This document shows, in pieces, positions 155 to 30,322 of a stretch of 64,000 nucleotides of DNA (its first letter is position 1; every line of letters starts with the position of its first letter). Below the pieces are notes generated by a model, which did no database searches, had not been told where the DNA came from, and saw only the letters and a program-made list of their open reading frames with translations. The stretch covers positions 1,422 to 65,421 of the forward strand of contig JAJZIH010000011.1 of NCBI GenBank assembly GCA_021810635.1, in the 5' to 3' direction. Both the position numbers and the translations under genes were made by a program. Source of the stretch: Pseudomonadota bacterium (GTDB lineage: Bacteria; Pseudomonadota; Gammaproteobacteria; JAKAQQ01).

Positions 155-922
155 ATGCGATTCGAAAAGATCACGGCCGTGGTGAGTGGAGGTGCATCCG
201 GACTGGGACGTGCCGTGGCCGACCGCGTGCTGGAGGCGGGTGGGCGGGTGACCCTCCTGGATGTGGCGCGGGAGGCTGGCGAGCGTTTCGCCTCCGAGGT
301 TCCGGGGCGGGTGCTCTTCGTCCCGACGGACGTGCGCGAGGGAGCCCAGGTGGATGCGGCACTGGTCCGTGCTCGGGAGTTTCTCGGGCGGATCGATCTG
401 GCCGTTGCCTGTGCTGGCGTGATCGGTGCGGGACGGGTGCTGGGACGGGAGGGGCCGATGCCCTCGGAAGCGTTCCAGCGGACGATCGGCATCAATCTCG
501 TCGGTACCTTCCATCTGGTCCGGGCGGCGGCCGGCCTCATGCAGGCGCAGGATCCGAACGGAGAGGGGGAGCGGGGCGTCTGCGTGCTGACGGCTTCGGT
601 GGCGGCCTTTGAGGGTCAGATCGGCCAGGCGGCCTATTCGGCCTCGAAAGGAGGGGTGGTTGGCATGACGCTGCCCTTGGCCCGCGAGTTGGCCCGGTTG
701 GGCATCCGGGTCGTGACCATTGCTCCCGGCATTTTCGAGACCCCCATGGTTGGCGGGATGACTCCGGAGCTCCAGGCCTCGCTCGCCGCCCAGATCCCTT
801 TCCCGCCGCGGCTCGGCCGGGCCTCCGAATACGCCGACTTGGTCCGCGCCATCGTCGAAAATCCCATGCTGAACGGCACCACGATCCGGTTGGACGGCGC
901 CGTCCGCATGCAGCCCAAGTGA
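155..922 (+). CDS. Short-chain dehydrogenase/reductase, 3-hydroxyacyl-CoA (3-hydroxy-2-methylbutyryl-CoA) dehydrogenase type-2-like
   Basis: N-terminal Rossmann motif VSGGASGLG and the catalytic YSASK motif. Length of 255 aa and overall similarity to HSD17B10-type SDRs. Operon context with ETF/ETF-QO. Confidence 0.8.
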   Translation: MRFEKITAVVSGGASGLGRAVADRVLEAGGRVTLLDVAREAGERFASEVPGRVLFVPTDVREGAQVDAALVRAREFLGRIDLAVACAGVIGAGRVLGREGPMPSEAFQRTIGINLVGTFHLVRAAAGLMQAQDPNGEGERGVCVLTASVAAFEGQIGQAAYSASKGGVVGMTLPLARELARLGIRVVTIAPGIFETPMVGGMTPELQASLAAQIPFPPRLGRASEYADLVRAIVENPMLNGTTIRLDGAVRMQPK

Positions 923-937
923 TCCGGCCGGGATCTC

Positions 938-2536
938 GTGACCGAAGCTGACCGCCTCCGCTACGATGTGCTCGTCATCGGTGCGGGCCCGGCGGGCCTG
1001 GCCTGTGCACTCACGCTCAAGCGCGAGAAGCCCGAGCTTTCGGTCGCCGTGCTCGAAAAGGCGGCAAGCCTGGGTGCCCATAGCCTGTCGGGTGCCGTGA
1101 TCGAGCCCGCCTGGGTCGACCGCCTCCTGCCCGGCTGGCGCGACGATCCGCTCGACATCCAAGTGCCGGTTTCCCGCGACCGTTTCGCCTGGCTCAGCCA
1201 TGGCCGCGCCTTCCGGCTTCCCACCCCGCCCCAGATGCACAACGCCGGCAACTGGATCGTCTCGCTCGGTGCGCTCGTGCGACGGCTTGGCGCGGCGGCC
1301 GAGAGCGCCGGTGTCGAAATCTTTCCCGGCTTTGCCGCCACCCAGCCCCTCTGGGACCGGGCGGGAGCTCTTGCGGGGGTCCGCGTGGGCGATCTCGGGC
1401 GGACCCGCGAGGGAGCCCCGGGACCGAACTTCTCCCCGGGAGTCGAGGTCCGGGCCGGTGTCACCGTCCTCGCCGAGGGCTGCCGCGGCAGTCTTTCCCG
1501 GACGCTCATCCGCCATTTCGGGCTCGATCAGGGGAAAAGCCCGCAGACCTACGCGCTCGGTCTCAAGGAACTCTGGCAACTGCCGCCCGGCCGGACCGTT
1601 CCCGGATCCGTCCTCCATACCGTGGGCTGGCCGCTTCCCACCGACCTCTACGGGGGCGGGTTCGTCTATCACCTGGACCGGGACCGGCTCGCGATCGGAT
1701 TCGTTGTGGGACTCGATTACGAAGATCCGGATTTCTCCCCCTTCGAGGCCTTCCAGCAGTTCAAGCACCATCCGGGTCTCGTGGGCCTCTTCGAAGGCGG
1801 CGAGATCCTGTCCGCCGGGGCCCGGACCCTCATCGAGGGCGGCTATCCGGCGCTCCCCACACTCGAGATGCCGGGAGGACTCCTCGTGGGCGATGCCGCC
1901 GGAACCCTGAACGTTCCCAAGATCAAGGGGGTCCACATGGCGTTGGGCTCGGGAATCCGGGCGGCCTTGCATCTCATCCAAAACGGCGGCCCCGAGGGCT
2001 TCGACCAAAACTTCCGGCACTCGGAGGCGGGCCGGGAACTTTGGCGGGTCCGCAACATCCGGCCGGGATTCCGGGCGGGACTCTGGGTTGGGCTCGCCAA
2101 TGCCGCCGTCGAGACCGTGACGGGGGGACGGGTGCCCTGGACGCTCACGAATGCCGACGACTGGCGGAGTCTCAAGCCGCGCGGTCCGGTCCCCCGCCCG
2201 CACCGCCGCTACCGGACCCGGATCCTGCCTCCGGCCGACCGCCTCGCCTTCGTCGACCTGGCCGCGCTCCACCATGAGGAAAACCAGCCGGTCCACTTGC
2301 AGGTCGCCGATCCCGCGCTCTGCGTGAGCCAATGCAGTGCCCGTTTCGGAAATCCCTGTACCCGGTTCTGTCCGGCCGGCGTCTACGAGATCGTGACCGA
2401 CGCCGGCGGATCGCGCCTCCAGATCAATGCCGCGAACTGCGTCCACTGCAAGGCCTGCGACATCAAGGATCCGTACGAACTCATCACCTGGGTCCCGCCC
2501 GAGGGAGGGTCGGGGCCGAACTACGCCAACCTCTGA
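938..2536 (+). CDS. Electron transfer flavoprotein-ubiquinone oxidoreductase (ETF-QO)
   Basis: GTG start. FAD motif VIGAGPAGLACA. C-terminal 4Fe-4S cysteine cluster (CSARFGNPCTRFCPAGVYE...CVHCKACDIKDP), typical of ETF-QO. 532 aa. Confidence 0.9.
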   Translation: MTEADRLRYDVLVIGAGPAGLACALTLKREKPELSVAVLEKAASLGAHSLSGAVIEPAWVDRLLPGWRDDPLDIQVPVSRDRFAWLSHGRAFRLPTPPQMHNAGNWIVSLGALVRRLGAAAESAGVEIFPGFAATQPLWDRAGALAGVRVGDLGRTREGAPGPNFSPGVEVRAGVTVLAEGCRGSLSRTLIRHFGLDQGKSPQTYALGLKELWQLPPGRTVPGSVLHTVGWPLPTDLYGGGFVYHLDRDRLAIGFVVGLDYEDPDFSPFEAFQQFKHHPGLVGLFEGGEILSAGARTLIEGGYPALPTLEMPGGLLVGDAAGTLNVPKIKGVHMALGSGIRAALHLIQNGGPEGFDQNFRHSEAGRELWRVRNIRPGFRAGLWVGLANAAVETVTGGRVPWTLTNADDWRSLKPRGPVPRPHRRYRTRILPPADRLAFVDLAALHHEENQPVHLQVADPALCVSQCSARFGNPCTRFCPAGVYEIVTDAGGSRLQINAANCVHCKACDIKDPYELITWVPPEGGSGPNYANL

Positions 2537-2544
2537 GGAATGCC

Positions 2545-3297
2545 ATGGCCCCCATGAAGATCCTGGTCGCTGCCAAGCGAGTGGTCGACTACAGCGTGCG
2601 CGTCCGCCTCACCCCCGACCGGACGGGCATTGCGAGTGACGGCGTCAAGATGTCGGTCAATCCCTTCGATGAGATCGCCCTCGAGGAAGCGCTCCGCATC
2701 CGTGAGCGGGGAGAGGCCACCCAAGTCGTGGTCGCAACGGTGGGTCCGCCCGAGGCCGAGTCCCAGATCCGGAGCCTCTTGGCCATGGGAGCTGACCGGG
2801 GCATCCACGTCGAGACCGGCCGGGAGACCGCCCCGCTCGAGGTGGCCCATGTCCTGTTTCGCCTGGTCCAGGAAATCGGACCGGGACTGGTCATCCTGGG
2901 CAAGCAGGCGATCGACGACGATTGCGGCCAGACCGGTCCCATGCTGGCGGCACTCTGGGACCGCCCCCAGGCCACGTATGTTTCGAAGCTCACGCTCTCG
3001 GAGGGCCGGGTGCAGGCGGTCCGCGAGGTGGATCACGGACTGGAAACCGTGGAACTCGTCCTGCCCGCCGTGATCACGACCGACCTCAGGCTCAATACCC
3101 CCCGTTTCATCAAGATGCCCGACATCATGAAGGCCCGCCAGAAGCCGCTCGAAAAACGACCGTTCGACGGCTTCGGGCTCGACCTCCCGCGCCTGACGGT
3201 GGAAGCCTATCTGCCGCCGCCCGAGCGCGAGGCGGGCCTCCGTCTCGAGTCGGTGGCGGAACTCGTGACTCGTCTCCACGATCGGGGGGTGCTCTGA
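2545..3297 (+). CDS. etfB: Electron transfer flavoprotein beta subunit
   Basis: MAPMKILVAAKRVVDYSVRVRL...VKMSVNPFDEIALEEA is the canonical EtfB N-terminus. This is an internal in-frame start of the 2332..3297 ORF. The upstream extension overlaps ETF-QO and looks non-coding. Confidence 0.9.
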   Translation: MAPMKILVAAKRVVDYSVRVRLTPDRTGIASDGVKMSVNPFDEIALEEALRIRERGEATQVVVATVGPPEAESQIRSLLAMGADRGIHVETGRETAPLEVAHVLFRLVQEIGPGLVILGKQAIDDDCGQTGPMLAALWDRPQATYVSKLTLSEGRVQAVREVDHGLETVELVLPAVITTDLRLNTPRFIKMPDIMKARQKPLEKRPFDGFGLDLPRLTVEAYLPPPEREAGLRLESVAELVTRLHDRGVL

Positions 3298-4271
3298 TGG
3301 ACGCGACCCTGGTCATGGCCGAGGCGCAAGAGGGAACGGTGCCCCTCGCCGAGGCGACGCTCAAGACGCTGGCCGTCGCCCGGAAGATCGGGGCCGGTCC
3401 ACTCGACATCGCCTGGACTGGCACGAGCCTGGATCCCCTGCTCGGCCAGGCGCGGACCCTGGCCGGCATCCGGCGGCACCTCGTCTTCGATGACCCGCGC
3501 CTCACGCACCCCACAGCCGACGTCATGGCCGCCCTCGTCGGGGATCTCGTCAGGGATTACAGCCACGTCCTCATGCCGGGAACCAGTTTCGGCCGTGATG
3601 TCCTGCCGCGTCTCGCGGGCCGCGTGGGCGCGCCCGCCGTCAGCGATGTGCTCGAGGTGCTCGATCCGAGACGCTTCAAGCGTGGCCTCTATGCCGGCAA
3701 CGTCCACGCGGTCGTCCGCGTCCCGGACGGAGTGCCGGTTCTGCTCACGGTCCGCCTGGCCTCCTGGCGACCCGTCACTGCCGAGAAAGAGGCCCAGCCA
3801 GCCGGGATCGAGAAGCGGGAGGTGCCCGCTGACCTCCCCACGGAGGCCCGGTTCGTGGGGCTCGAACGCGACGCCAGCGCGCGGCCCGATCTTCAGTCGG
3901 CGCGGCGGGTGGTCTCCGGAGGGCGATCGTTTGGCAGCCGCGAGAACTTCGCCCTGCTCGAGGGGCTGGCCGACCGTCTCAACGCCGCCATCGGTGCCTC
4001 GCGGGCGGCCGTCGATGCGGGCTATGCGCCGAACGACCTCCAGGTGGGCCAGACCGGCAAGATCATCGCCCCCGAGCTTTACATGGCCTTTGGCATTTCG
4101 GGAGCGATCCAGCACCTGACCGGCATCCGCGATGCCGGAACCATCGTGGCCGTGAACAAGGATCCCGAGGCTCCGATCTTCAAGGTGGCCGATTTCGGGC
4201 TCGTGGGCGATCTCTTCGAGGTGATCCCGGCCCTTCTGGCCGAGCTCGAACGGCAGGGGATCGCTCGTTGA
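3297..4271 (+). CDS. etfA: Electron transfer flavoprotein alpha subunit
   Basis: The ATG overlaps the etfB TGA (ATGA-type coupling). C-terminal FAD-binding signature ELYMAFGISGAIQHLTGI...AVNKDPEAPIF. Confidence 0.9.
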   Translation: MDATLVMAEAQEGTVPLAEATLKTLAVARKIGAGPLDIAWTGTSLDPLLGQARTLAGIRRHLVFDDPRLTHPTADVMAALVGDLVRDYSHVLMPGTSFGRDVLPRLAGRVGAPAVSDVLEVLDPRRFKRGLYAGNVHAVVRVPDGVPVLLTVRLASWRPVTAEKEAQPAGIEKREVPADLPTEARFVGLERDASARPDLQSARRVVSGGRSFGSRENFALLEGLADRLNAAIGASRAAVDAGYAPNDLQVGQTGKIIAPELYMAFGISGAIQHLTGIRDAGTIVAVNKDPEAPIFKVADFGLVGDLFEVIPALLAELERQGIAR

Positions 4272-21514: not shown

Positions 21515-22152
21515 AGCACGTCGGCCTCTTCGGCGGCTCATTCGATCCCGTGCACGTCGGCCATCTGCGGGCGGCGCTCGAGGCCGCGGAACACGTGGGC
21601 CTGGACGAGCTGCGCTTCGTTCCCTGTGCCGTCTCGCCCGGGAAACCCCGGCCACACGCGTCCGGCAGTCTCCGGCGGGAATGGCTTCGCCAAGCGATCG
21701 GAGATCGGCCGGGCTGGCAGGTGGACGACCGGGAATTGCGCCGGGGGGGCGTGAGCTATACGGTCGAGACCCTGGCCGAAATCCGGGAGACCGAGCCGGA
21801 CGCGCGCCTGTACTGGATGGTCGGCTCGGATGCCTTTTGCGGGCTGCATGGGTGGCGGGAGGCGGATCGCCTGGGCCGGCTCGCGCACTGGATCGTCCTT
21901 CTCAGGCCCGGGTTCGAAGACCGCCTCCCCCCCCCACAGGCACCCGACTGGTGCCGGAGCGGGACGACGGACGATCCGGCAAAACTGAGGCGGGATCCGG
22001 CCGGAGGCGTCCTTTATCTGCCGGTCACTCCGCTCGGCATCTCCGCCACGGCGGTCCGCGCCCGGATCCGCCGGGGACAGCGCCTCGATTACCTCGTTCC
22101 CGAACCGATCCGGGGCACCCTCGAGCGGGCGGATTGCTATGACCCGCCCTAA
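21511..22152 (+). CDS. nadD: Nicotinate-nucleotide adenylyltransferase
   Basis: The GTG start overlaps the holA TGA. Motif GLFGGSFDPVHVGH (HxGH). Confidence 0.9.
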   Translation: MKHVGLFGGSFDPVHVGHLRAALEAAEHVGLDELRFVPCAVSPGKPRPHASGSLRREWLRQAIGDRPGWQVDDRELRRGGVSYTVETLAEIRETEPDARLYWMVGSDAFCGLHGWREADRLGRLAHWIVLLRPGFEDRLPPPQAPDWCRSGTTDDPAKLRRDPAGGVLYLPVTPLGISATAVRARIRRGQRLDYLVPEPIRGTLERADCYDPP

Positions 22153-22477
22153 AACCTCCTGGCCCCCGGATCCGTGGCTGGACTCGCTCGAGCAGGTCAT
22201 CCGGGACCACCACGGATACGAAATCGTGCGGCTGGATGTCCGGGGACTCACAACCTTGGCCGACCACTTCGTGATCGCGAGCGGAACTTCGGATCGCCAG
22301 CTCCGGACCCTCGCCGCACGGGTCCGCGAGGCGGCCCAGGGGGCTGGGCGACCCATTGTCGGCAGCGAAGGGGAACCCACCGGCGGCTGGGTTCTGGTCG
22401 ATCTCGACGACGTGATCGTCCATCTCATGCTGCCCGATCTCAGGCGGTTCTACCAACTCGAAAAACTGTGGAGCTAG
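22139..22477 (+). CDS. rsfS: Ribosomal silencing factor RsfS
   Basis: DHFVIASGTS...WVLVDLDDVIVHLM...YQLEKLWS. The C-terminus matches the native E. coli RsfS end (ELEKLWS, recalled). Confidence 0.9.
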   Translation: MTRPKTSWPPDPWLDSLEQVIRDHHGYEIVRLDVRGLTTLADHFVIASGTSDRQLRTLAARVREAAQGAGRPIVGSEGEPTGGWVLVDLDDVIVHLMLPDLRRFYQLEKLWS

Positions 22478-23607
22478 TAGAGAGACCCACCAAAGTATTT
22501 ACACTTCAATCCGGATCCCGCACATTTCGGCCAGACCCCACTCGTCAACCCCGGAGGGCGCCATGGCCGACAAGACCCAGAGGACTCCATTGGTTCTGAA
22601 CGATCGGGAAAGACAGAAGATCCAGGGCATTGCCCAATCCCGCACGGCCCTGCTCCGGGACGTGCAACGGGCGAAGATTCTTTTGGCCTATGCCGACCGC
22701 GTTTCGCTGTCCAGCATTGCGATGCCAACCGGAACGACCCGTCCCACGGTGTACAAGTGCATCGACAAAGCCTTGTCCATGGGCTGGGAGGCGGGACTCA
22801 GGGACCTTTTTCACCGTCCGAAAGAACCGACAATGACTCCGGAAGCCAAGGCCTGGGCGGTCTCTTTGGGGGCTTGCAGCCGAGCTCTGGACCCACCAGG
22901 CCCTGGCCCACTACATCCGGACCCATTCCACGGGGGGGAAGCGGGCCACCCGTCCCTGTCCCGGCCGGGTGGCCAAGTGCACCGTCCAGAGGATTCTGGA
23001 CGAACAGGAACTGAAACCCCATCAGGTCCGGTATTACCTTGAACGCTGCGGTCCGGAGTTCGACCGGAAGATGCGGGAGGTTCTCATGGTCTACCGCGAG
23101 GTGTCCCTCGCCCCACCCGGAGGAGATCGGGAGGTCTACACCGTGAGCGTCGACGAGAAGCCGGGGGTCCAGGCCCCGGGAGTCACGGCTCCCGATCGGT
23201 CTCCGGTCCCCGGAACACATCCGGCCGTTTCCCGGGACCCTGAAGATGTCCGGATGGGAACGCTTTCCATTCTGGCCGCCCTGGATCTCCATGACGGCCA
23301 AGTCATCGCCCAGGTCCACGAGCGCCACCGGAGCCGGGAGTTCGTCGAACTCTTGAAGGAACTGGATCGCCATTATCCTCCGGAAGCCCAGATCCGGGTG
23401 ATCCTGGACAACCGCTCCGCCCATGTCTCCCAGGAGACCCGGGCCTTTCTTCGCCCTATCCGGGCGGGCAGCCTGGCGGAGCTCAAGGAACGGATTCTTG
23501 AAGGGGTTCAGGAGATCAACGAGAACCCCGTCGTTCGCCGCTGGAAAATTCCGAAGCCATCGAATCGGATGCTAAAGTGCAACTATTTTAGTGGGTCTTT
23601 CTACGAG
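22474..23607 (+). mobile_element. IS630-family insertion sequence, copy 1 (defective)
   Basis: Imperfect terminal inverted repeats CTAGTAGAGAGACCCACCAAAGTATTTACACTT / CTCGTAGAAAGACCCACTAAAATAGTTGCACTT (right end reverse-complemented). Encodes IS630-type HTH and DDE segments. Boundaries are good to within a few nt. Confidence 0.8.
22563..23607 (+). pseudogene. IS630-family transposase, disrupted by frame changes and an internal deletion
   Basis: Homologous segments alternate between two frames: AKAWAVSLG (A), ELWTHQALAHYIRTHS (B), EAGHPSLSR (A), VAKCTVQRILDE...DEKPGVQA...ILDNRSAHVSQETRAFL (B). The stretch normally between AFL and LRxIR (HGSWLN..E, bearing the catalytic Glu) is missing. There is no stop codon before the IS end. 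Confidence 0.7.
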
Positions 23608-23658
23608 TCTCACCGCCGCCCGCGCCCCGCGAGAGGCCTTTTCATTAACCAACCTCCC

Positions 23659-24087
23659 TCAGCCCGGCACTGCGGGTGCCACCACTTGCTTCGATAGCGC
23701 CTGAAAGTTAACCGTTGGCAATAGATATGGCCCCCAGGGACCTCGACTAGTCACTATCAGTACCATTTCGCGCGCGGCTGAGTAGAGAATTGAGGTCCCA
23801 TTAATACGGAGAAGTTTCTCTTTGTCAGGGTTTGACGGCTCCAAAACGGAAAACTGTCCGACCACCTGGAATGCCACATCATAAGGAAGCGTTCCGGCCC
23901 CGTCAGGCGCCCGTAGGCTACTGATCTCGAGGGTCACACGGTACTTACTCTCAACGCCCTCCACAGGTTCCAGTCCCGCCTGAATTTGCACATTGACCCT
24001 CGGCGCAAGCGACTCCAGTTTGTGCTCGAAATTCGTTTCGACACGCAATTTGGAGAAGACATATTGGTCAAGTTGTAGTAGACCCAT
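23659..24087 (-). CDS. SecB-like chaperone (TAC-type)
   Basis: 142 aa. YRVTLEIS...FQVVGQFSV...NGTSILYSAAREMVLIVTSRGPWGPYLLPTVNFQAL parallels the E. coli SecB core ...YEVVLRVTV...QQGGIFSI...[35 protein letters not shown] (recalled). It starts 7 nt after the antitoxin stop. Confidence 0.75.
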   Translation of the reverse strand: MGLLQLDQYVFSKLRVETNFEHKLESLAPRVNVQIQAGLEPVEGVESKYRVTLEISSLRAPDGAGTLPYDVAFQVVGQFSVLEPSNPDKEKLLRINGTSILYSAAREMVLIVTSRGPWGPYLLPTVNFQALSKQVVAPAVPG

Positions 24088-24094
24088 AAAGAAA

Positions 24095-24625
24095 TTAACC
24101 GTTCAGGACGTTTGGTAGATCATTAAGGTTAGTTGTCTCCATGCGTACATTTTGATTTCGTTTCGGAAATGGAACAATGGAGGCGTGCTGCGGCGTAGAA
24201 ATAGTTGCCTCAATCATGATCTCCTTCTGCCAGTTCCCCATTTCACTACCCACTAAACGCTCGAGTGTCAGCAACTCTTCACTAAAACTCGCCGCTTCTA
24301 GGCCCTGCGGAGTTTTGTCGGCGATCTCAGTAAAGAACTTGGTAAATGGCACCAATTTCACCAATAGAGCGACGTCGAATGCGTTCGCCAACTCTGTGAG
24401 GGTTTTTACGCTCAGGCGCCCATAATCAGGGTCCTCTAGTCGGGACACGGCGTTCTGCCCCTTCCTGAGCCTCCGACCCAGCTCTTCCTGGGTCCAGTGG
24501 CGCTGTTCTCGGAGCGCGCGAATCTGATAAGCAATGCCGGTAGTGACCTCTGCGGTCACATACGCGTCTCGATATTTTTTGCTTTGAAATTTTGCCAACA
24601 GCTTGTCTCTAAAAGACCCAATCAT
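24095..24625 (-). CDS. XRE-family HTH antitoxin (HigA-like) with long C-terminal extension
   Basis: HTH core IRALREQRHWTQEELGRRLRKGQNAVSRLEDPDYGRLSVKTLTELANAFDVALLVKL, resembling M. tuberculosis HigA1. A tail of about 75-80 aa follows the HTH. GGAGGGAG Shine-Dalgarno upstream. It overlaps the toxin gene by 17 nt. Confidence 0.8.
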   Translation of the reverse strand: MIGSFRDKLLAKFQSKKYRDAYVTAEVTTGIAYQIRALREQRHWTQEELGRRLRKGQNAVSRLEDPDYGRLSVKTLTELANAFDVALLVKLVPFTKFFTEIADKTPQGLEAASFSEELLTLERLVGSEMGNWQKEIMIEATISTPQHASIVPFPKRNQNVRMETTNLNDLPNVLNG

Positions 24626-25013
24626 TGGCGCTCCCTCCGGTCGGGTTAGGTTGAGTTCGGTGTGCGTTTAATGCAGACATGTATTTCAGCGCAGATGCGC
24701 AAGCACTTGGCGGTTGGAGTTGGTCACCTCTCTCAATAGCCCCAACCAATAACGTAAATTGATTCGGCCCCGGTCCAAAAAAGCCTAATGGCCGATATTG
24801 TATCTTCTTCGCTTTGAAGCGTATCTCACCGAGACCAGCACATGGTCCATGCAAAAGACTGAAATGAGGCCTCGACCACCCATTCCGGGGCTGCTGTTTC
24901 AAATACAACAATCTGGCATCAAAAACAGCTCTCACGTCTTCGCCCAGGTTGTCGTACCAGTTCTTAAAAGAACTCTCACCATTGGCGGCCACGTAATACT
25001 TAATGATCCACAT
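24609..25013 (-). CDS. HigB/Gp49-like RelE-superfamily toxin
   Basis: 134 aa. MWIIKYYVAANGESSFKNWYDNL...LGEIRFKAKKIQYRPLGFFGPGPNQFTLLVGAIERG fits the Gp49/HigB pattern (W..F...G.. / ELR....YR.L.FF......LL..F.K). It is the first gene of the three-gene operon. Confidence 0.7.
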   Translation of the reverse strand: MWIIKYYVAANGESSFKNWYDNLGEDVRAVFDARLLYLKQQPRNGWSRPHFSLLHGPCAGLGEIRFKAKKIQYRPLGFFGPGPNQFTLLVGAIERGDQLQPPSACASALKYMSALNAHRTQPNPTGGSANDWVF

Positions 25014-25034
25014 TGTATATCATAATCTTGTGAT

Positions 25035-25049
25035 ACGGCAAAGTGCCGT
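25035..25049. promoter_or_regulatory. Palindrome ACGGCA-N3-TGCCGT upstream of the toxin gene; candidate antitoxin operator
   Basis: Perfect 6-bp arms, 22-36 nt upstream of the toxin ATG (25013), next to AT-rich TATGATATA sequence. Confidence 0.3.
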
Positions 25050-25169
25050 CCGTCGGAGGAGGTTGGGGCGCGTACACCTAATCAGCAGAGAGATCAGAAG
25101 CCCTGTCTGCCTGGCGCTAAACAGGCGTGACCCAGCATAAATGTTTCTGATGCCTGCTTCAACCGGGTT

Positions 25170-26303
25170 CTAGTAGAGAGACCCACCAAAGTATTTACAC
25201 TTCAATCCGGATCCCGCACATTTCGGCCAGACCCCACTCGTCAACCCCGGAGGGCGCCATGGCCGACAAGACCCAGAGGACTCCATTGGTTCTGAACGAT
25301 CGGGAAAGACAGAAGATCCAGGGCATTGCCCAATCCCGCACGGCCCTGCTCCGGGACGTGCAACGGGCGAAGATTCTTTTGGCCTATGCCGACCGCGTTT
25401 CGCTGTCCAGCATTGCGATGCCAACCGGAACGACCCGTCCCACGGTGTACAAGTGCATCGACAAAGCCTTGTCCATGGGCTGGGAGGCGGGACTCAGGGA
25501 CCTTTTTCACCGTCCGAAAGAACCGACAATGACTCCGGAAGCCAAGGCCTGGGCGGTCTCTTTGGGGGCTTGCAGCCGAGCTCTGGACCCACCAGGCCCT
25601 GGCCCACTACATCCGGACCCATTCCACGGGGGGGAAGCGGGCCACCCGTCCCTGTCCCGGCCGGGTGGCCAAGTGCACCGTCCAGAGGATTCTGGACGAA
25701 CAGGAACTGAAACCCCATCAGGTCCGGTATTACCTTGAACGCTGCGGTCCGGAGTTCGACCGGAAGATGCGGGAGGTTCTCATGGTCTACCGCGAGGTGT
25801 CCCTCGCCCCACCCGGAGGAGATCGGGAGGTCTACACCGTGAGCGTCGACGAGAAGCCGGGGGTCCAGGCCCCGGGAGTCACGGCTCCCGATCGGTCTCC
25901 GGTCCCCGGAACACATCCGGCCGTTTCCCGGGACCCTGAAGATGTCCGGATGGGAACGCTTTCCATTCTGGCCGCCCTGGATCTCCATGACGGCCAAGTC
26001 ATCGCCCAGGTCCACGAGCGCCACCGGAGCCGGGAGTTCGTCGAACTCTTGAAGGAACTGGATCGCCATTATCCTCCGGAAGCCCAGATCCGGGTGATCC
26101 TGGACAACCGCTCCGCCCATGTCTCCCAGGAGACCCGGGCCTTTCTTCGCCCTATCCGGGCGGGCAGCCTGGCGGAGCTCAAGGAACGGATTCTTGAAGG
26201 GGTTCAGGAGATCAACGAGAACCCCGTCGTTCGCCGCTGGAAAATTCCGAAGCCATCGAATCGGATGCTAAAGTGCAACTATTTTAGTGGGTCTTTCTAC
26301 GAG
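25170..26303 (+). mobile_element. IS630-family insertion sequence, copy 2 (defective, identical to copy 1)
   Basis: Offset of exactly 2,696 bp from copy 1. All six-frame ORFs within it are identical to those of copy 1. Confidence 0.8.
25259..26303 (+). pseudogene. IS630-family transposase pseudogene (same lesions as copy 1)
   Basis: Translations are identical to copy 1. The reading frame runs out of the element into flanking DNA (25665..26477 ORF). Confidence 0.7.
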
Positions 26304-26304
26304 A

Positions 26305-26332
26305 CCGGGTCGGCCAGAGGAATCCGACCCGG
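26305..26332. repeat. Perfect 9-bp-stem hairpin immediately right of IS copy 2
   Basis: CCGGGTCGG (26305-26313), a 10-nt loop, then CCGACCCGG (26324-26332). No T tract follows. Confidence 0.4.
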
Positions 26333-26476
26333 CCGCTGGATGAGTCCGTCCCCGTTCCCGGCCGCCGGGGAGGGACGTTCGGCTGGGGGCCTCGCCCAGT
26401 GTGCGACAATCTCCCGGTCAGCCGGTCTGAAAGCGGATCCGGCATTTTTGGTTTCCCGAGCGAGAGCCTTGGACTA

Positions 26477-29400
26477 ATGGACTCAACGCCTGTGCGCCCC
26501 CGCCGCCTCTGGGTTCGTGTTCCGGCGGGACTCGTGGCCGTGCTGGTCATCGGGGCGGCGGCCGGGGTGGGCCTGTTTCGCCTGGCCGCCCTGACCGTCC
26601 CGGCGTACCGTCACGAGGTCGAGCAGTGGGCTTCCCGCACCGTCGGCGTGCCGTTGACGATCCGCGGCATCGAAGCGCGCTGGAGCGGCTTGGGCCCCGA
26701 ACTCGTTCTGGATTCCGTGGTCTTGAAGGCTCCGCACCGCCGGACCCCCCTGGCCGGGGCCAGCCAGATCGTGGTGCATCTGTCGATTCCGGTCATGATC
26801 GAGAACGGACGGTTGCTGCCGAGCGGCGTGACCATCCGCGGACTCCGTTTGACGGTCCGGCAAAACGCGGCCGGGCACTGGCAGATGCCCTGGGCGAAGC
26901 CCGGCGAACCCCATTCCTTTCCGTTTGCGACGCTCCTCGCGGTCAGTGCGCACGATGCCCGCCTGCAGTTCCGTGACGCCGTGATCCGGCTGATTCCGTC
27001 CGCCACCCGCCCACCGACCCTTCTTCAAGTCTCCCGCTTCCGGATTGCGGTCCGGGCCGACCAGTACCGCATGATGCTCAGCATGCGGGCTGAGCCCCAT
27101 CTGGTCCGGATGCTTGACCTCCGGGTGCGAGCGCAGGGCTCCCGAACGGACCCCGGTCTCTGGCACTGGCGCGTCCGGGGCGAGGTTCTGGATCTCGCCC
27201 CGGCGGCCCTGGTCCCGCTGGGCCTGGTCCTGCCGGTCCAGGGACTGGACGGGAGCCGGTTGTCGGTCACGCTGGCAGGCGCGGGAATGGGGCGACACCC
27301 CGCCCGCCTCCATGGATCATTGACGGCAATGTGGCCCGACCGGGGCTCCCGGCCAGGCCCCCTTCATCCGGGTCGGGTCCGAATCCAGGGGGGATTCCGG
27401 GTCAACTGGATCAAAAGGCGGGCCGTTCTGTCCCCGATCGTCGTGGCGCGGCCCGGGCATCCGGCCCGTCGCGAGGACCTCGAGATCGGCTGGTCTGGGG
27501 CCGTGGGGGGCCGGGTGGGCTACCGGATCGGGGCCCAGCGGTTTTTCCTGGGCACGCTCTTGCCGTTCGTGCCGTTGGCCGGACCGTCCACCGCACTCCG
27601 CCCGATGGCGAACCTCTTGGGCCGCTTGCGCCCCACTGGCCGGGTGGTCGGGCTGGATGTCCGCCTCGGGCTCACCCCGAACGGATGGGACGTACGTTCG
27701 GCCACGGGACGGTTTGAACGGGTGGGCTGGTCGGCCTGGAGAGGCTGGCCCGGATTCGGGGGATTTTCAGGACATTTCGCCGCGACGGGCCGAAACGGAT
27801 CCGTCTTCCTCAGGCCTTCGACCGTCACGTTCCGCGATCCCGGGATCTTCAGCCGGCCGATCACCCTCACCTGGGGAGGGACCGTACTGTCGTATGAGGC
27901 CCGTCCCAAGGGCCTTTTGGCCCTCACCCCGACCTGGATCCGCTCCCCTGGGTTCGCGGTCGCGGTTCACCAGGCGACCCTCCGTCTGCCGTCCGGAGTC
28001 GGCCGGTCCCCGACAATCCGGCTGGATGCCCGTCTCCGGAACGGCCGCGTGCCGCTCATGGCCGGGGACATCCCCTACGGAATCTTCGGGCCGGGGCTGC
28101 GCCGATGGCTCCACCGGGCGTTGGTCGCGGGCTGGATCCCCGAGGCCCACCTGGTCCTCGACGGGAAACTTTCGGACTTCCCGTTTTCGCATGGGGGCGG
28201 GCGGTTCGAGGTCCGCTTCGCCCTCCGGAAGGCGGAGGTGCATATCGCCTCCGGCTGGCCCGATCTCGTGGTCGATCGGGCAGAGGGGGTTTTCGCCGGA
28301 CCGGGGTTCTCCGTGCGGATCGCGACCGGGATGGAAGCCGGTTTCCCGCTGGCCGGATCCGGCCTCGTGATTCCACACCTCAAGCGGGGCGTCTTGCATA
28401 TCCGGGGCGCCTTTGCGGGCCAGGCCGCAACCCTTGAAAGCTATCTCGATTCGACGCCCCTGTCACGACGCTGGAACGGACTGTTCACCGCTCTCGATCT
28501 CACCGGCCCGCTCGCGGCTTCGGTCCGGATCCGCCTCCCGGTCCATGCACTGGACCGGCCGACGATCCGGGGGCACGTCCGGTTTATCCGGGATCGCTTC
28601 CGCTTTCGGCCCTGGCCCCTCGTGCTCCATCGTCTCAAAGGAGACGTCACCTTCGACAACCTGGCCGTGACGGCTCCGACCCTGACCGCCCGGCTCAATG
28701 GGCACCGACTCACTTTCAATGCGTGGAGGAAGCGGAAGGAAACCCATCTCCAGATGGTGGGAGCCCTGGATGTGGCGAAGCTTGGGTTGCCCGCCCCCTT
28801 GGCCCGGCTCGTTCAAGGGGCTTCCGACTGGCAAGCCGAGCTCGCCTATGCCCCCGCGCATCTGACCGGCCGGCTGCGGTTCAAGGTTCTGACCCACCTC
28901 GTGGGCACGCGCCTCCTTCTGCCAGCTCCGCTGGCCAAGGCCGCCGCCCGGTCCATGACCCTGGATTTGACCGGCGCGCTGGTGCAGGGGGACTCGCGTT
29001 TCCGCATCGCGGGGACCTGGAAGTCGATCGGTTGGATGGGAGTCCGGGGGCGGTTCGTCGATGGCCGGCCGGTCCTGTCCGCCGGCCGGATCGATTTTGG
29101 AGGCCGTCTTGCACCCCTTCCGGCCCACGGGATTCTGGTCACGGGGGGTGTTGGGGAGACCGATCTGTCCGGATGGTGGCGCCTGTACCGGCAGATCCGG
29201 CTTCCAGGGTCGGGCTCTCCCTCCGTCCGGATCAAGGACTTGCATCTCGCCCGCCTGACCGGCTGGGGACAGAAGCTCGGCCCTCTCCTCCTGTCGGTCG
29301 CGGCGGCAACCCGGACCGGGTTTCATTTCCAGGTGGACGGGACGGATCTCGCCGGGACCGGCTTTTTTCCGCCCGCCGGCAGCCACCGCCCGGTCCAGCT

Positions 29401-30322
29401 GCACTTCAGCCGTTTTGAAATCGCGCCACTCGTCCACCTGGCGGGATCCGGCACGAGTCATCTCACGCCGGAGGTCCTGCCGGCCCTGGACTGGTCCAGC
29501 ACGCAAACCCGTTACGGGCGGATTGTGCTCGGCAACGTCATTTTTGACTGGACCCATCCTTCCCCCCACGCTCTCCGCTGTTCCCATGTCGCCCTGGTTT
29601 CGCCCGATCTCCGGATCACCGGGGGCGGGCAATGGGTCTGGAATCGTTCGGGATCCCGCGTTGACCTCAACGCCAAGGTCACGAGCCCGAAGGTCGGTTC
29701 GGCCTTCCGCCAGCTTGACATCAAGCGGATCCTGACGGGTCAGCAGGCCGGGGTTGCCCTGAACCTGGACTGGCGGGGAACTCCCTGGCACCCCGACCGG
29801 ACTTCGCTTGGGGGCACCATCCGGTTTTCCGTCCGGGATGGCCGGGTCCTCGCCATCAAGCCCGGTGGTGCCGGACGCTTCCTCGCGCTCCTCAGTCTGA
29901 ATGCATTGCCGCGCCGGCTCGGCCTGGACTTCAGCGACGTCTTCTCCCGCGGGCTCAGCTATGACCGCCTGCAGGGGATGTTCACCATCCGGCGAGGAGT
30001 GGCCGTGACCCATGACGCCACGCTTTTCGGTTCCTCGATTGCCATCTGGCTCACCGGAAAAACCGATCTCGCCAAACGGAGTTATGATCAGGTGGCACTC
30101 GTCATCCCCCATGTGGGATCCACCCTGCCGATCGCGGGGGCCATTTTCGGTGGCCCGATCGGGGGGGGGATCCTCCTCGCGCTGTCCCGGATCTTCCGGG
30201 GAGTGATCGAAAGCATGAGCGAAACCTACTATCACGTCACGGGACCCTGGCGGGACCCGCGCGTCCACCGGATCAGCGCGGCCCGGGCGCGGGCGCTCGG
30301 CTTCGTGAAGAAGCCCGGGTAG
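26477..30322 (+). CDS. yhdP: YhdP-family (AsmA-like, DUF3971) large envelope protein
   Basis: 1,281 aa. One N-terminal TM segment (LVAVLVIGAAAGVGLF), then a long beta-rich body. C-terminal YYHVTGPWRDPRV signature typical of YhdP. The internal start MDSTPV was chosen. Confidence 0.8.
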   Translation: MDSTPVRPRRLWVRVPAGLVAVLVIGAAAGVGLFRLAALTVPAYRHEVEQWASRTVGVPLTIRGIEARWSGLGPELVLDSVVLKAPHRRTPLAGASQIVVHLSIPVMIENGRLLPSGVTIRGLRLTVRQNAAGHWQMPWAKPGEPHSFPFATLLAVSAHDARLQFRDAVIRLIPSATRPPTLLQVSRFRIAVRADQYRMMLSMRAEPHLVRMLDLRVRAQGSRTDPGLWHWRVRGEVLDLAPAALVPLGLVLPVQGLDGSRLSVTLAGAGMGRHPARLHGSLTAMWPDRGSRPGPLHPGRVRIQGGFRVNWIKRRAVLSPIVVARPGHPARREDLEIGWSGAVGGRVGYRIGAQRFFLGTLLPFVPLAGPSTALRPMANLLGRLRPTGRVVGLDVRLGLTPNGWDVRSATGRFERVGWSAWRGWPGFGGFSGHFAATGRNGSVFLRPSTVTFRDPGIFSRPITLTWGGTVLSYEARPKGLLALTPTWIRSPGFAVAVHQATLRLPSGVGRSPTIRLDARLRNGRVPLMAGDIPYGIFGPGLRRWLHRALVAGWIPEAHLVLDGKLSDFPFSHGGGRFEVRFALRKAEVHIASGWPDLVVDRAEGVFAGPGFSVRIATGMEAGFPLAGSGLVIPHLKRGVLHIRGAFAGQAATLESYLDSTPLSRRWNGLFTALDLTGPLAASVRIRLPVHALDRPTIRGHVRFIRDRFRFRPWPLVLHRLKGDVTFDNLAVTAPTLTARLNGHRLTFNAWRKRKETHLQMVGALDVAKLGLPAPLARLVQGASDWQAELAYAPAHLTGRLRFKVLTHLVGTRLLLPAPLAKAAARSMTLDLTGALVQGDSRFRIAGTWKSIGWMGVRGRFVDGRPVLSAGRIDFGGRLAPLPAHGILVTGGVGETDLSGWWRLYRQIRLPGSGSPSVRIKDLHLARLTGWGQKLGPLLLSVAAATRTGFHFQVDGTDLAGTGFFPPAGSHRPVQLHFSRFEIAPLVHLAGSGTSHLTPEVLPALDWSSTQTRYGRIVLGNVIFDWTHPSPHALRCSHVALVSPDLRITGGGQWVWNRSGSRVDLNAKVTSPKVGSAFRQLDIKRILTGQQAGVALNLDWRGTPWHPDRTSLGGTIRFSVRDGRVLAIKPGGAGRFLALLSLNALPRRLGLDFSDVFSRGLSYDRLQGMFTIRRGVAVTHDATLFGSSIAIWLTGKTDLAKRSYDQVALVIPHVGSTLPIAGAIFGGPIGGGILLALSRIFRGVIESMSETYYHVTGPWRDPRVHRISAARARALGFVKKPG

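Follow-up and report, generated by a model that had tools for sequence, protein, structure and literature searches.

In a draft genome of a gammaproteobacterium of the JAKAQQ01 lineage (GCA_021810635.1), the genes rsfS and yhdP are parted by two identical, directly repeated copies of a defective IS630-family insertion sequence (IS) that bracket a foreign operon of the toxin-antitoxin-chaperone (TAC) type and nothing else. The stretch that was analysed (the window) comprises 64,000 nucleotides, positions 1,422 to 65,421 of the forward strand of contig JAJZIH010000011.1, which is contig C22 of a 33-contig draft of 1.88 Mb that is 87% complete; coordinates are given as positions in the window. 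We read the structure as a non-autonomous IS630 composite transposon that probably (we put the likelihood at about 0.7) entered this site by transposition as a unit, then suffered decay of its transposase genes, and had its two IS copies made identical by one full-length conversion.

The segments at 22474-23607 and 25170-26303, which lie on the same strand at an offset of 2,696 bp with 1,562 bp between them, had been taken to be identical by a sequence-only reading of this DNA, on the basis of their translations and of spot checks. Compared base by base, they match at 1,134 of 1,134 positions, and the identity ends sharply at those four coordinates. Each repeat is slightly longer than the IS that it contains, consisting of C-TA, an IS of 1,128 bp and GA-G, that is, of the IS together with its split CTAG target. 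IS copy 1, an IS630-family deletion derivative, occupies 22477-23604 on the forward strand, with its left inverted repeat (IRL) at 22477-22507 and its right inverted repeat (IRR) at 23574-23604; IS copy 2, identical to it and on the same strand, occupies 25173-26300. The imperfect terminal inverted repeats, previously estimated at about 33 bp, match at 27 of 34 positions with the ends as they were first placed and at 25 of 31 with the ends corrected. The terminus GTAGA(G/A)AGACCCA is common to the window IS and its relatives G007, L041 and L046.

IS630 elements are Tc1/mariner-like and move by cut-and-paste with duplication of a TA dinucleotide; CTAG is their classical target. The intact relatives of the window IS are flanked by C-TA on the left and TA-G on the right (L041 reads C-TA-[GTATATAGACCC...GGGTCTCTATAC]-TA-G, and the right end of L046 reads ...GGGTCTTTCTAC-TA-G, the terminal GGGTCTTTCTAC being common to the intact relatives and the window IS), and it follows that this IS clade targets CTAG and duplicates TA, like IS630. 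All four IS junctions in the window are located at CTAG sites, and their half-sites can be assigned on the forward strand by comparison. For copy 1 the left half-site, C+TA at 22474-22476, is given by the flanks of the relatives and by the empty-site alignment described below, and the right half-site, GA-G at 23605-23607 where TA-G is expected, by the intact relatives, which end ...CTAC-TA-G, and by an IS-free homologue of the cargo (L031) that has CTAG at this point. For copy 2 the left half-site, C-TA at 25170-25172, is given by a second IS-free homologue (L032), which reads ...CAACCGGGTT-CTAG-TTGC here, and the right half-site, GA-G at 26301-26303, by the identity of the repeats, the intact relatives and the empty-site alignment. 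The target dinucleotide is thus TA on the left and GA on the right in both copies, the right one being one base off. The outer ends of the whole unit read C-TA ... GA-G, with one of two nucleotides in agreement, and the inner junctions are alike, each within its own CTAG. The earlier statement that the outer ends show no matching target-site duplication calls for a refinement: the half-sites had been overlooked, since they lie inside the repeat as it was first delimited, but left TA and right GA are indeed not a perfect match. Separately, a 7-bp direct repeat, ACCGGGT, flanks IS copy 2 at 25162-25168 and 26304-26310, offset by one base. The chance of such a flanking 7-mer in this genome is about 1e-3; its left member is ancestral to the cargo lineage, being present in L032 too, and its right member is homologous to the spacer of the congeners. 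We have treated the pair as coincidence or as a target-context preference.

Assignment to the IS630 family is made by matches of the window frames to Pfam DDE_3 (E=4.6e-9) and, weakly, to HTH_29/HTH_28, and by the frame-restored transposase of a metagenome variant (L029, to which we return below), which scores 133.6 bits against NCBIfam transpos_IS630 (cut-off 100) over positions 1-246 of the 299 in the profile; in an intact relative the match extends over all 299. Aligned with intact relatives of 378 aa, the frame-restored protein is 70-72% identical and shows one gap of 8 aa and another of 34 aa, which takes out FLATRPNRFVYVHTPKHGSWLNLVETLFSKMSRT (the SWLNLVE region), the home of the third acidic catalytic residue. 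What is left of the gene in copy 1 consists of two forward-strand fragments. Fragment 1 (22563-23042) holds the helix-turn-helix (HTH) DNA-binding part and is out of frame past about codon 100; fragment 2 (22969-23697) is the DDE_3 core (Pfam DDE_3 positions 28-102 of 146), with D...D and without E, and its frame meets no stop within the IS copy and continues into the cargo flank. In copy 2 the open transposase frame extends to 26477, past the start of yhdP.

Both copies carry the same five lesions, two deletions and three small frame-breaking insertions, which were defined by comparison with two metagenome variants, L029 and L040. Four of them form a cluster at 22864-22964 (forward strand, with the same lesions in copy 2 at +2,696): a 24-bp deletion between 22864 and 22865, one additional G in the run at 22868-22872, a gain of five G at 22932-22938 and a duplicated CCGG at 22961-22964. 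The other is a 102-bp in-frame deletion at 23451-23452 on the forward strand (in copy 2 between 26147 and 26148), which lies between 8-bp direct repeats CCTTTCTT and has lost the catalytic glutamate region; L040 keeps the segment. The transposase gene is dead in both copies, and the IS, recognized earlier as transposase-defective from the open reading frames, is a defective, non-autonomous member of its family with an incomplete D-D-E triad: the segment of the third catalytic residue is missing and the frame is broken. Programmed frameshifting that would join the two transposase fragments was considered and rejected, the three breaking insertions being absent from the sister strain represented by L029.

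The same cargo-IS junction occurs in three states, which together form a decay series. In L040 both the 24-bp and the 102-bp segments are still present; in L029 both are deleted, the three insertions are absent and a continuous frame of 402 aa is found; the window has the L029-type deletions plus the three slippage insertions. L029 matches window positions 23619-27219 at 99.6% and carries the right-hand copy. Its 402-aa frame (ENA ERZ27237345 k141_343464, 743-1951) meets no stop inside the IS and crosses the yhdP start region, and its divergence from the window is 0 of 1551 positions in the cargo and 3 single-nucleotide differences in 916 bp of the adjacent yhdP region. L040 (ENA ERZ27236962 k141_327090, 1-1539) has an IS truncated on its right side and joined to DNA of 56% GC that is absent from this genome; it may represent the donor lineage or a second location. 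Since the older states are found at the cargo junction in L040 and L029, the right-hand copy has decayed in place. The left copy has all five lesions and the same GA half-site, from which we infer that it was overwritten by gene conversion or created late by a non-transpositional route; the GA that the two copies have in common favours conversion or recombination, because ordinary transposition does not carry flanking target bases with it. Gene conversion or late copying is thus the most likely origin of the identity of the copies, in line with the earlier suggestion of a recent duplication or conversion, the lesions being seen to accrue at the same cargo junction in L040 and L029.

The cargo (23608-25169, reverse strand, 1,562 bp) consists of the TAC operon and its own promoter region. 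Its GC content is 51.5%, compared with 61.6% for the IS and 68-69% for the flanks, and the foreign low-GC DNA ends exactly at the inner IS ends. Three adjacent, co-oriented genes in the order toxin-antitoxin-SecB-like chaperone make it a HigB1-type TAC operon. The toxin (24609-25013, reverse strand, 134 aa; a 17-nt overlap with the start of the antitoxin gene) is a HigB1-like member of the RelE superfamily. Its AlphaFold2 model (pLDDT 93.7) finds Mycobacterium tuberculosis HigB1 (7nbu_Y, TM score 0.62/0.68) as its best Foldseek match, followed by HigB2 and RelE. On its own the sequence is weakly Gp49-like, 53 of its 73 relatives match Pfam Gp49, and the profile of the toxin family matches M. 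tuberculosis HigB1 at E=0.007; single-sequence searches of the PDB with the toxin and with the chaperone gave no match. The antitoxin (24095-24625, reverse strand, 176 aa) is of the XRE type (Pfam HTH_3 E=2.2e-9; weak NCBIfam antitoxin matches), with the HTH at residues 35-87 followed by a tail of about 89 residues that is a candidate chaperone-addiction region. The chaperone (23659-24087, reverse strand, 142 aa) scores 38.4 bits against Pfam SecB (gathering score 26) and matches the PADLOC model PD-T4-9_C at E=2.8e-5. Promoter-like hexamers, TTGCCG-18-TACAAT (25012-25049, reverse strand; a consensus match only), place a TACAAT -10 element directly against the ATG of the toxin gene, and a perfect palindrome, ACGGCA-CTT-TGCCGT (25035-25049), overlaps the promoter-like -35 hexamer. 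The arrangement suggests that the palindrome is a candidate operator and that the TAC transcript may be autoregulated and possibly leaderless. The operon looks intact and is probably still an addiction or anti-phage module.

In its own genome the cargo occurs once. It is absent from 40 relatives, and in a comparison of its DNA with 400 genomes of the class its own genome is the sole match. IS-free homologues of the TAC operon do exist in L031 and L032, at 88-90% nucleotide identity to the cargo, and at each of the two inner junctions their homology to the window breaks off at CTAG (...GCCCTAG/TCTCACC and ...CAACCGGGTT/CTAG/TTGC), which identifies the foreign segment as one that is delimited by two IS630-type insertion sites. 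In L032 (JGI 3300033990 Ga0373184_0022175, 569-4013; 88%) the TAC operon adjoins an XRE repressor gene, an excisionase-like gene and a P-like helicase loader gene, a context that is that of a prophage or satellite.

At its outer ends the unit interrupts an ancestral gene pair. rsfS (22139-22477, forward strand, 112 aa; Pfam RsfS E=4.9e-27) ends with a TAG stop at 22475-22477 that is made up of the target TA and the first base of the IS (G). On the other side, a remnant of the former rsfS-yhdP spacer (26304-26398, forward strand) begins with ACCGGGT, is homologous to the spacer of the congeners and leads to yhdP (26399-30322, forward strand, AsmA-like, 1,307 aa; Pfam YhdP E=9.9e-171), the ancestral neighbour of rsfS. 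The empty site that the sequence-only reading had proposed to look for is found in all three of the congeners G001-G003 (about 79% nucleotide identity), in which rsfS is directly followed by yhdP and no TAC operon intervenes. The composite-transposon architecture that had been put forward is borne out to this extent: a direct pair of IS630 elements that do not diverge from one another brackets foreign cargo, the relatives lack TAC at this locus, and the whole unit is missing from the site in three congeners. Neither of the findings that had been named as grounds for rejecting it, substantial divergence of the copies and an IS-free TAC operon at this locus in related genomes, was obtained.

Joining the flanks with one CTAG restored gives alignment scores of 35, 27.5 and 28.5 against G001-G003, compared with 29, 21.5 and 22.5 for a join without CTAG, which leaves a 4-nt alignment gap at the exact insertion point in two of the three congeners (G001 and G003). 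The CTAG-less join, which would put rsfS back in frame to the stop of the congeners, was rejected on these grounds; its apparent length match is the coincidence of a 4-nt indel downstream. The congeners read CTGG (codon TGG) where CTAG is placed here, and their RsfS runs 13 codons further (L024-L026), so that in this species rsfS must already have ended ...EKLWS-TAG, 13 codons early. On this alignment a nonsense change is predicted to have made the CTAG that the IS then used; the unit would have entered the stop codon of rsfS and regenerated it with TA from the target and G from the IS. The RsfS terminus ...EKLWS-TAG (22466-22477) is the same as in E. coli.

Short reads place identical repeats of 1.1 kb poorly, and in a draft of 33 contigs and 87% completeness one has to ask whether the assembler doubled an IS copy or inserted a separate contig. 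The junctions were checked in independent megahit and Logan metagenome assemblies. The rsfS-IS-left junction is found in L047/L048 and in Logan contigs; L030 has the IS-right-cargo and cargo-IS-left junctions at 100% identity in 8 samples; L029 joins cargo, IS and yhdP on a single contig; and the IS repeat recurs without any change as a unitig of its own, L039, of 1,134 bp. The reproduction of four distinct junctions, each in independent assemblies and over many samples, makes an artefact very unlikely, and we attach next to no weight to it. Short-read junctions by themselves may also fit a population in which some chromosomes have a solo IS and IS-TAC circles coexist with them, a point that bears on the history of the element.

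As to copies elsewhere, a BLAST search of the whole assembly shows the IS to be present twice only, in the copies described, and the cargo once, and the terminal 12-mers of the IS are found nowhere else in it. The search for further copies that had been recommended was thus negative in the genome itself and productive outside it, where it brought to light the IS-free cargo homologues already described and intact relatives of the IS with the same IRR tip, on other contigs of the same sample series. A scan with the 17-nt IRR end gave 9 genome-contig and 17 metagenome-contig matches, none of them homologous to the IS, which are chance matches. In a genome of the same family (G005), matches to the right end of this IS clade are located at the extreme ends of contigs C38 and C20 (L008, L009), suggesting a multi-copy related IS that breaks its assembly. 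An intact IS630-family transposase of 370-odd aa with an SSWLNLVE motif is encoded on contig C1 of the present assembly, outside the window, at about 118322-119452; as a helper it was rejected, being only 30% identical to the IS clade of the window and having unrelated ends. With no other copy and no helper transposase related to the IS in this genome assembly, movement could only take place in trans, as had been foreseen. Unable to move unaided, and in a genome that shows no helper, the element is best seen as effectively a fossil, which could be mobilized only by the arrival of a close helper.

How might this structure have come about? We propose that two copies of one IS entered CTAG sites to the left and right of a TAC operon that resided in a foreign donor, probably a prophage-like one. 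The outer ends of the pair (the IRL of copy 1 and the IRR of copy 2) would then have acted as the ends of one transposon of about 3.83 kb, and IS-TAC-IS would have entered the CTAG that spans the last Ser codon and the TAG stop of rsfS, parting rsfS from yhdP. That the foreign segment ends at the inner IS ends and that the break in the chromosome lies at the outer ends points to a unit carried by the IS pair. The transposase would have decayed in place by loss of 24 bp, then of 102 bp, and then by the three slippage insertions, and the copies would subsequently have been homogenized over the whole 1,134-bp block, most simply in one gene-conversion event, which would have carried along a T-to-G change in the target dinucleotide on the right. 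The TAC operon may also select against cells that lose the cargo when the direct repeats recombine. One could instead suppose that TAC was resident between rsfS and yhdP and that two independent IS insertions came later, the IS pair never having carried the cargo, and it is in keeping with this that IS630 targets CTAG and that the IS-free homologues have CTAG at both ends of the cargo. But the low-GC foreign DNA is bounded at the very base by the inner IS ends, as the break in the chromosome is by the outer ones, so that a resident island must have been bounded exactly by the sites that were later hit; the congeners are without TAC here; and five identical lesions bar independent insertions of an active element, unless the copies were later converted. 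We regard this history as distinctly improbable.

Several observations weigh against transposition of the unit as just outlined. Where a TA/TA duplication would be expected, the right-hand dinucleotide is GA, both at the outer end of the unit and at the inner end of copy 1, which makes the classic proof of insertion as a unit an imperfect one. For both copies to share this GA, conversion must have come as close as 2 nt to the point where homology ceases, unless the copying was non-transpositional. The 7-bp ACCGGGT repeat around copy 2 is not accounted for by this history and is too long for an IS630 duplication. A same-species empty site has not turned up: the contigs that encode exactly this RsfS protein, which come from at least 25 samples, all enter the IS (stopping 141 nt into it in megahit assemblies and 30 nt in Logan assemblies). 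No second site of the unit is found in its own genome, in the 40 relatives or in the 400 genomes of the class, so that mobility as a unit rests on one event. The main rival is that a solo IS first occupied the CTAG of rsfS and that a 2,696-bp IS+TAC circle, which recombination had freed from a composite or a tandem array at another place, then recombined into it as a translocatable unit. This predicts exactly the final structure and the four junctions that are seen, which counts against the history that we prefer; recombination is attractive for an element with a decayed transposase; identity of the copies follows partly from the crossover; and L040 puts the cargo-IS junction in another DNA context, absent from this genome. 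The route nevertheless still needs an IS-TAC-IS or IS-TAC circle that was formed elsewhere, explains GA at both right ends no better, and calls for a solo-IS allele, none of which has been seen, although short-read contigs could not show one. We consider it unlikely and prefer transposition of the composite followed by decay and conversion.

A more radical proposal would make IS-TAC-IS a self-stabilizing unit of mutually dependent parts, in which addiction penalizes frequent RecA-mediated pop-out of the cargo, ongoing conversion keeps the repeats identical, the mutated target base included, and the popped-out 2.7-kb IS+TAC circle re-enters any resident IS copy in the manner of an IS26 translocatable unit. 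It is a rather doubtful proposal. Were it true, IS630 elements would spread cargo independently of transposase after the death of the transposase itself.

The closest known system is Tn630-NC1 of Nitrosomonas communis Nm2, described as the first composite transposon of the IS630 family (Hu et al. 2024, Sci Rep, PMC11544213), which is 6.5 kb long with 888-bp IS components, four cargo genes and TATA at its ends. The two have in common a pair of IS630-family copies, a type II toxin-antitoxin (TA) pair in the cargo (there BrnT/BrnA) and degeneration of both IS copies by indels that leaves the element inactive (PMC11544213). They differ in that the transposase genes of Tn630-NC1 read outwards from the body, so that its copies are apparently opposed (PMC11544213), whereas those of the window are direct, and in that the window element has identical 1,128-bp copies, TAC as its sole cargo, a stop-codon CTAG as its target and a decay that can be traced in metagenome variants.

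For the cargo, the comparison is with the M. tuberculosis TAC operon Rv1955-Rv1957 (HigB1/HigA1/SecB-like), which has the same toxin-antitoxin-chaperone order (Bordes et al. 2016, PMC5105189; Guillet et al. 2019, PMC6377645; Mansour et al. 2022, PMC9098466). Further likenesses are a toxin model with HigB1 as best match, an XRE HTH antitoxin with a long C-terminal tail and a chaperone above the SecB threshold; sequence identity is low, at 19% for the toxin over the structural alignment. In CmdTAC/PD-T4-9 a SecB-like chaperone controls the antitoxin, and the window chaperone matches PD-T4-9_C (Vassallo et al. 2022, PMC9519451; Mets et al. 2024, PMC11618068). CmdT, the toxin of that system, is an mRNA ADP-ribosyltransferase (PMC9519451, PMC11618068), whereas the window toxin has a RelE/HigB fold; only the chaperone is related. 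TAC systems can act as phage defence (PMC9519451, PMC11618068).

The arrangement of cargo between direct IS copies is familiar in its own right. Tn9 with IS1 and the translocatable units of IS26 have it, and recombination can release a circle of one IS and the cargo from them. The IS family and the chemistry differ, the window element being of the IS630 cut-and-paste type, and no targeted conservative reaction like that of IS26 is known for IS630.

Current understanding is not overturned by these findings. The element is of a known kind, an IS630 composite transposon with TA cargo, in a real but fairly ordinary worn-out form, and no new mechanism is called for. For annotation, it accounts for an RsfS that is 13 residues shorter than those of the congeners and for an rsfS-yhdP gap of 3.9 kb. 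Composite transposons of the IS630 family are very few on record, and this is a clean, base-resolved addition to them, one for which the target, the empty site, IS-free relatives of the cargo in other DNA contexts and three successive states of decay are all recoverable from public data. It is also a naturally occurring instance of dead IS copies evolving in concert, and a TAC module as the sole cargo of a transposon fits the view of TA and defence modules as hitch-hiking selfish DNA.

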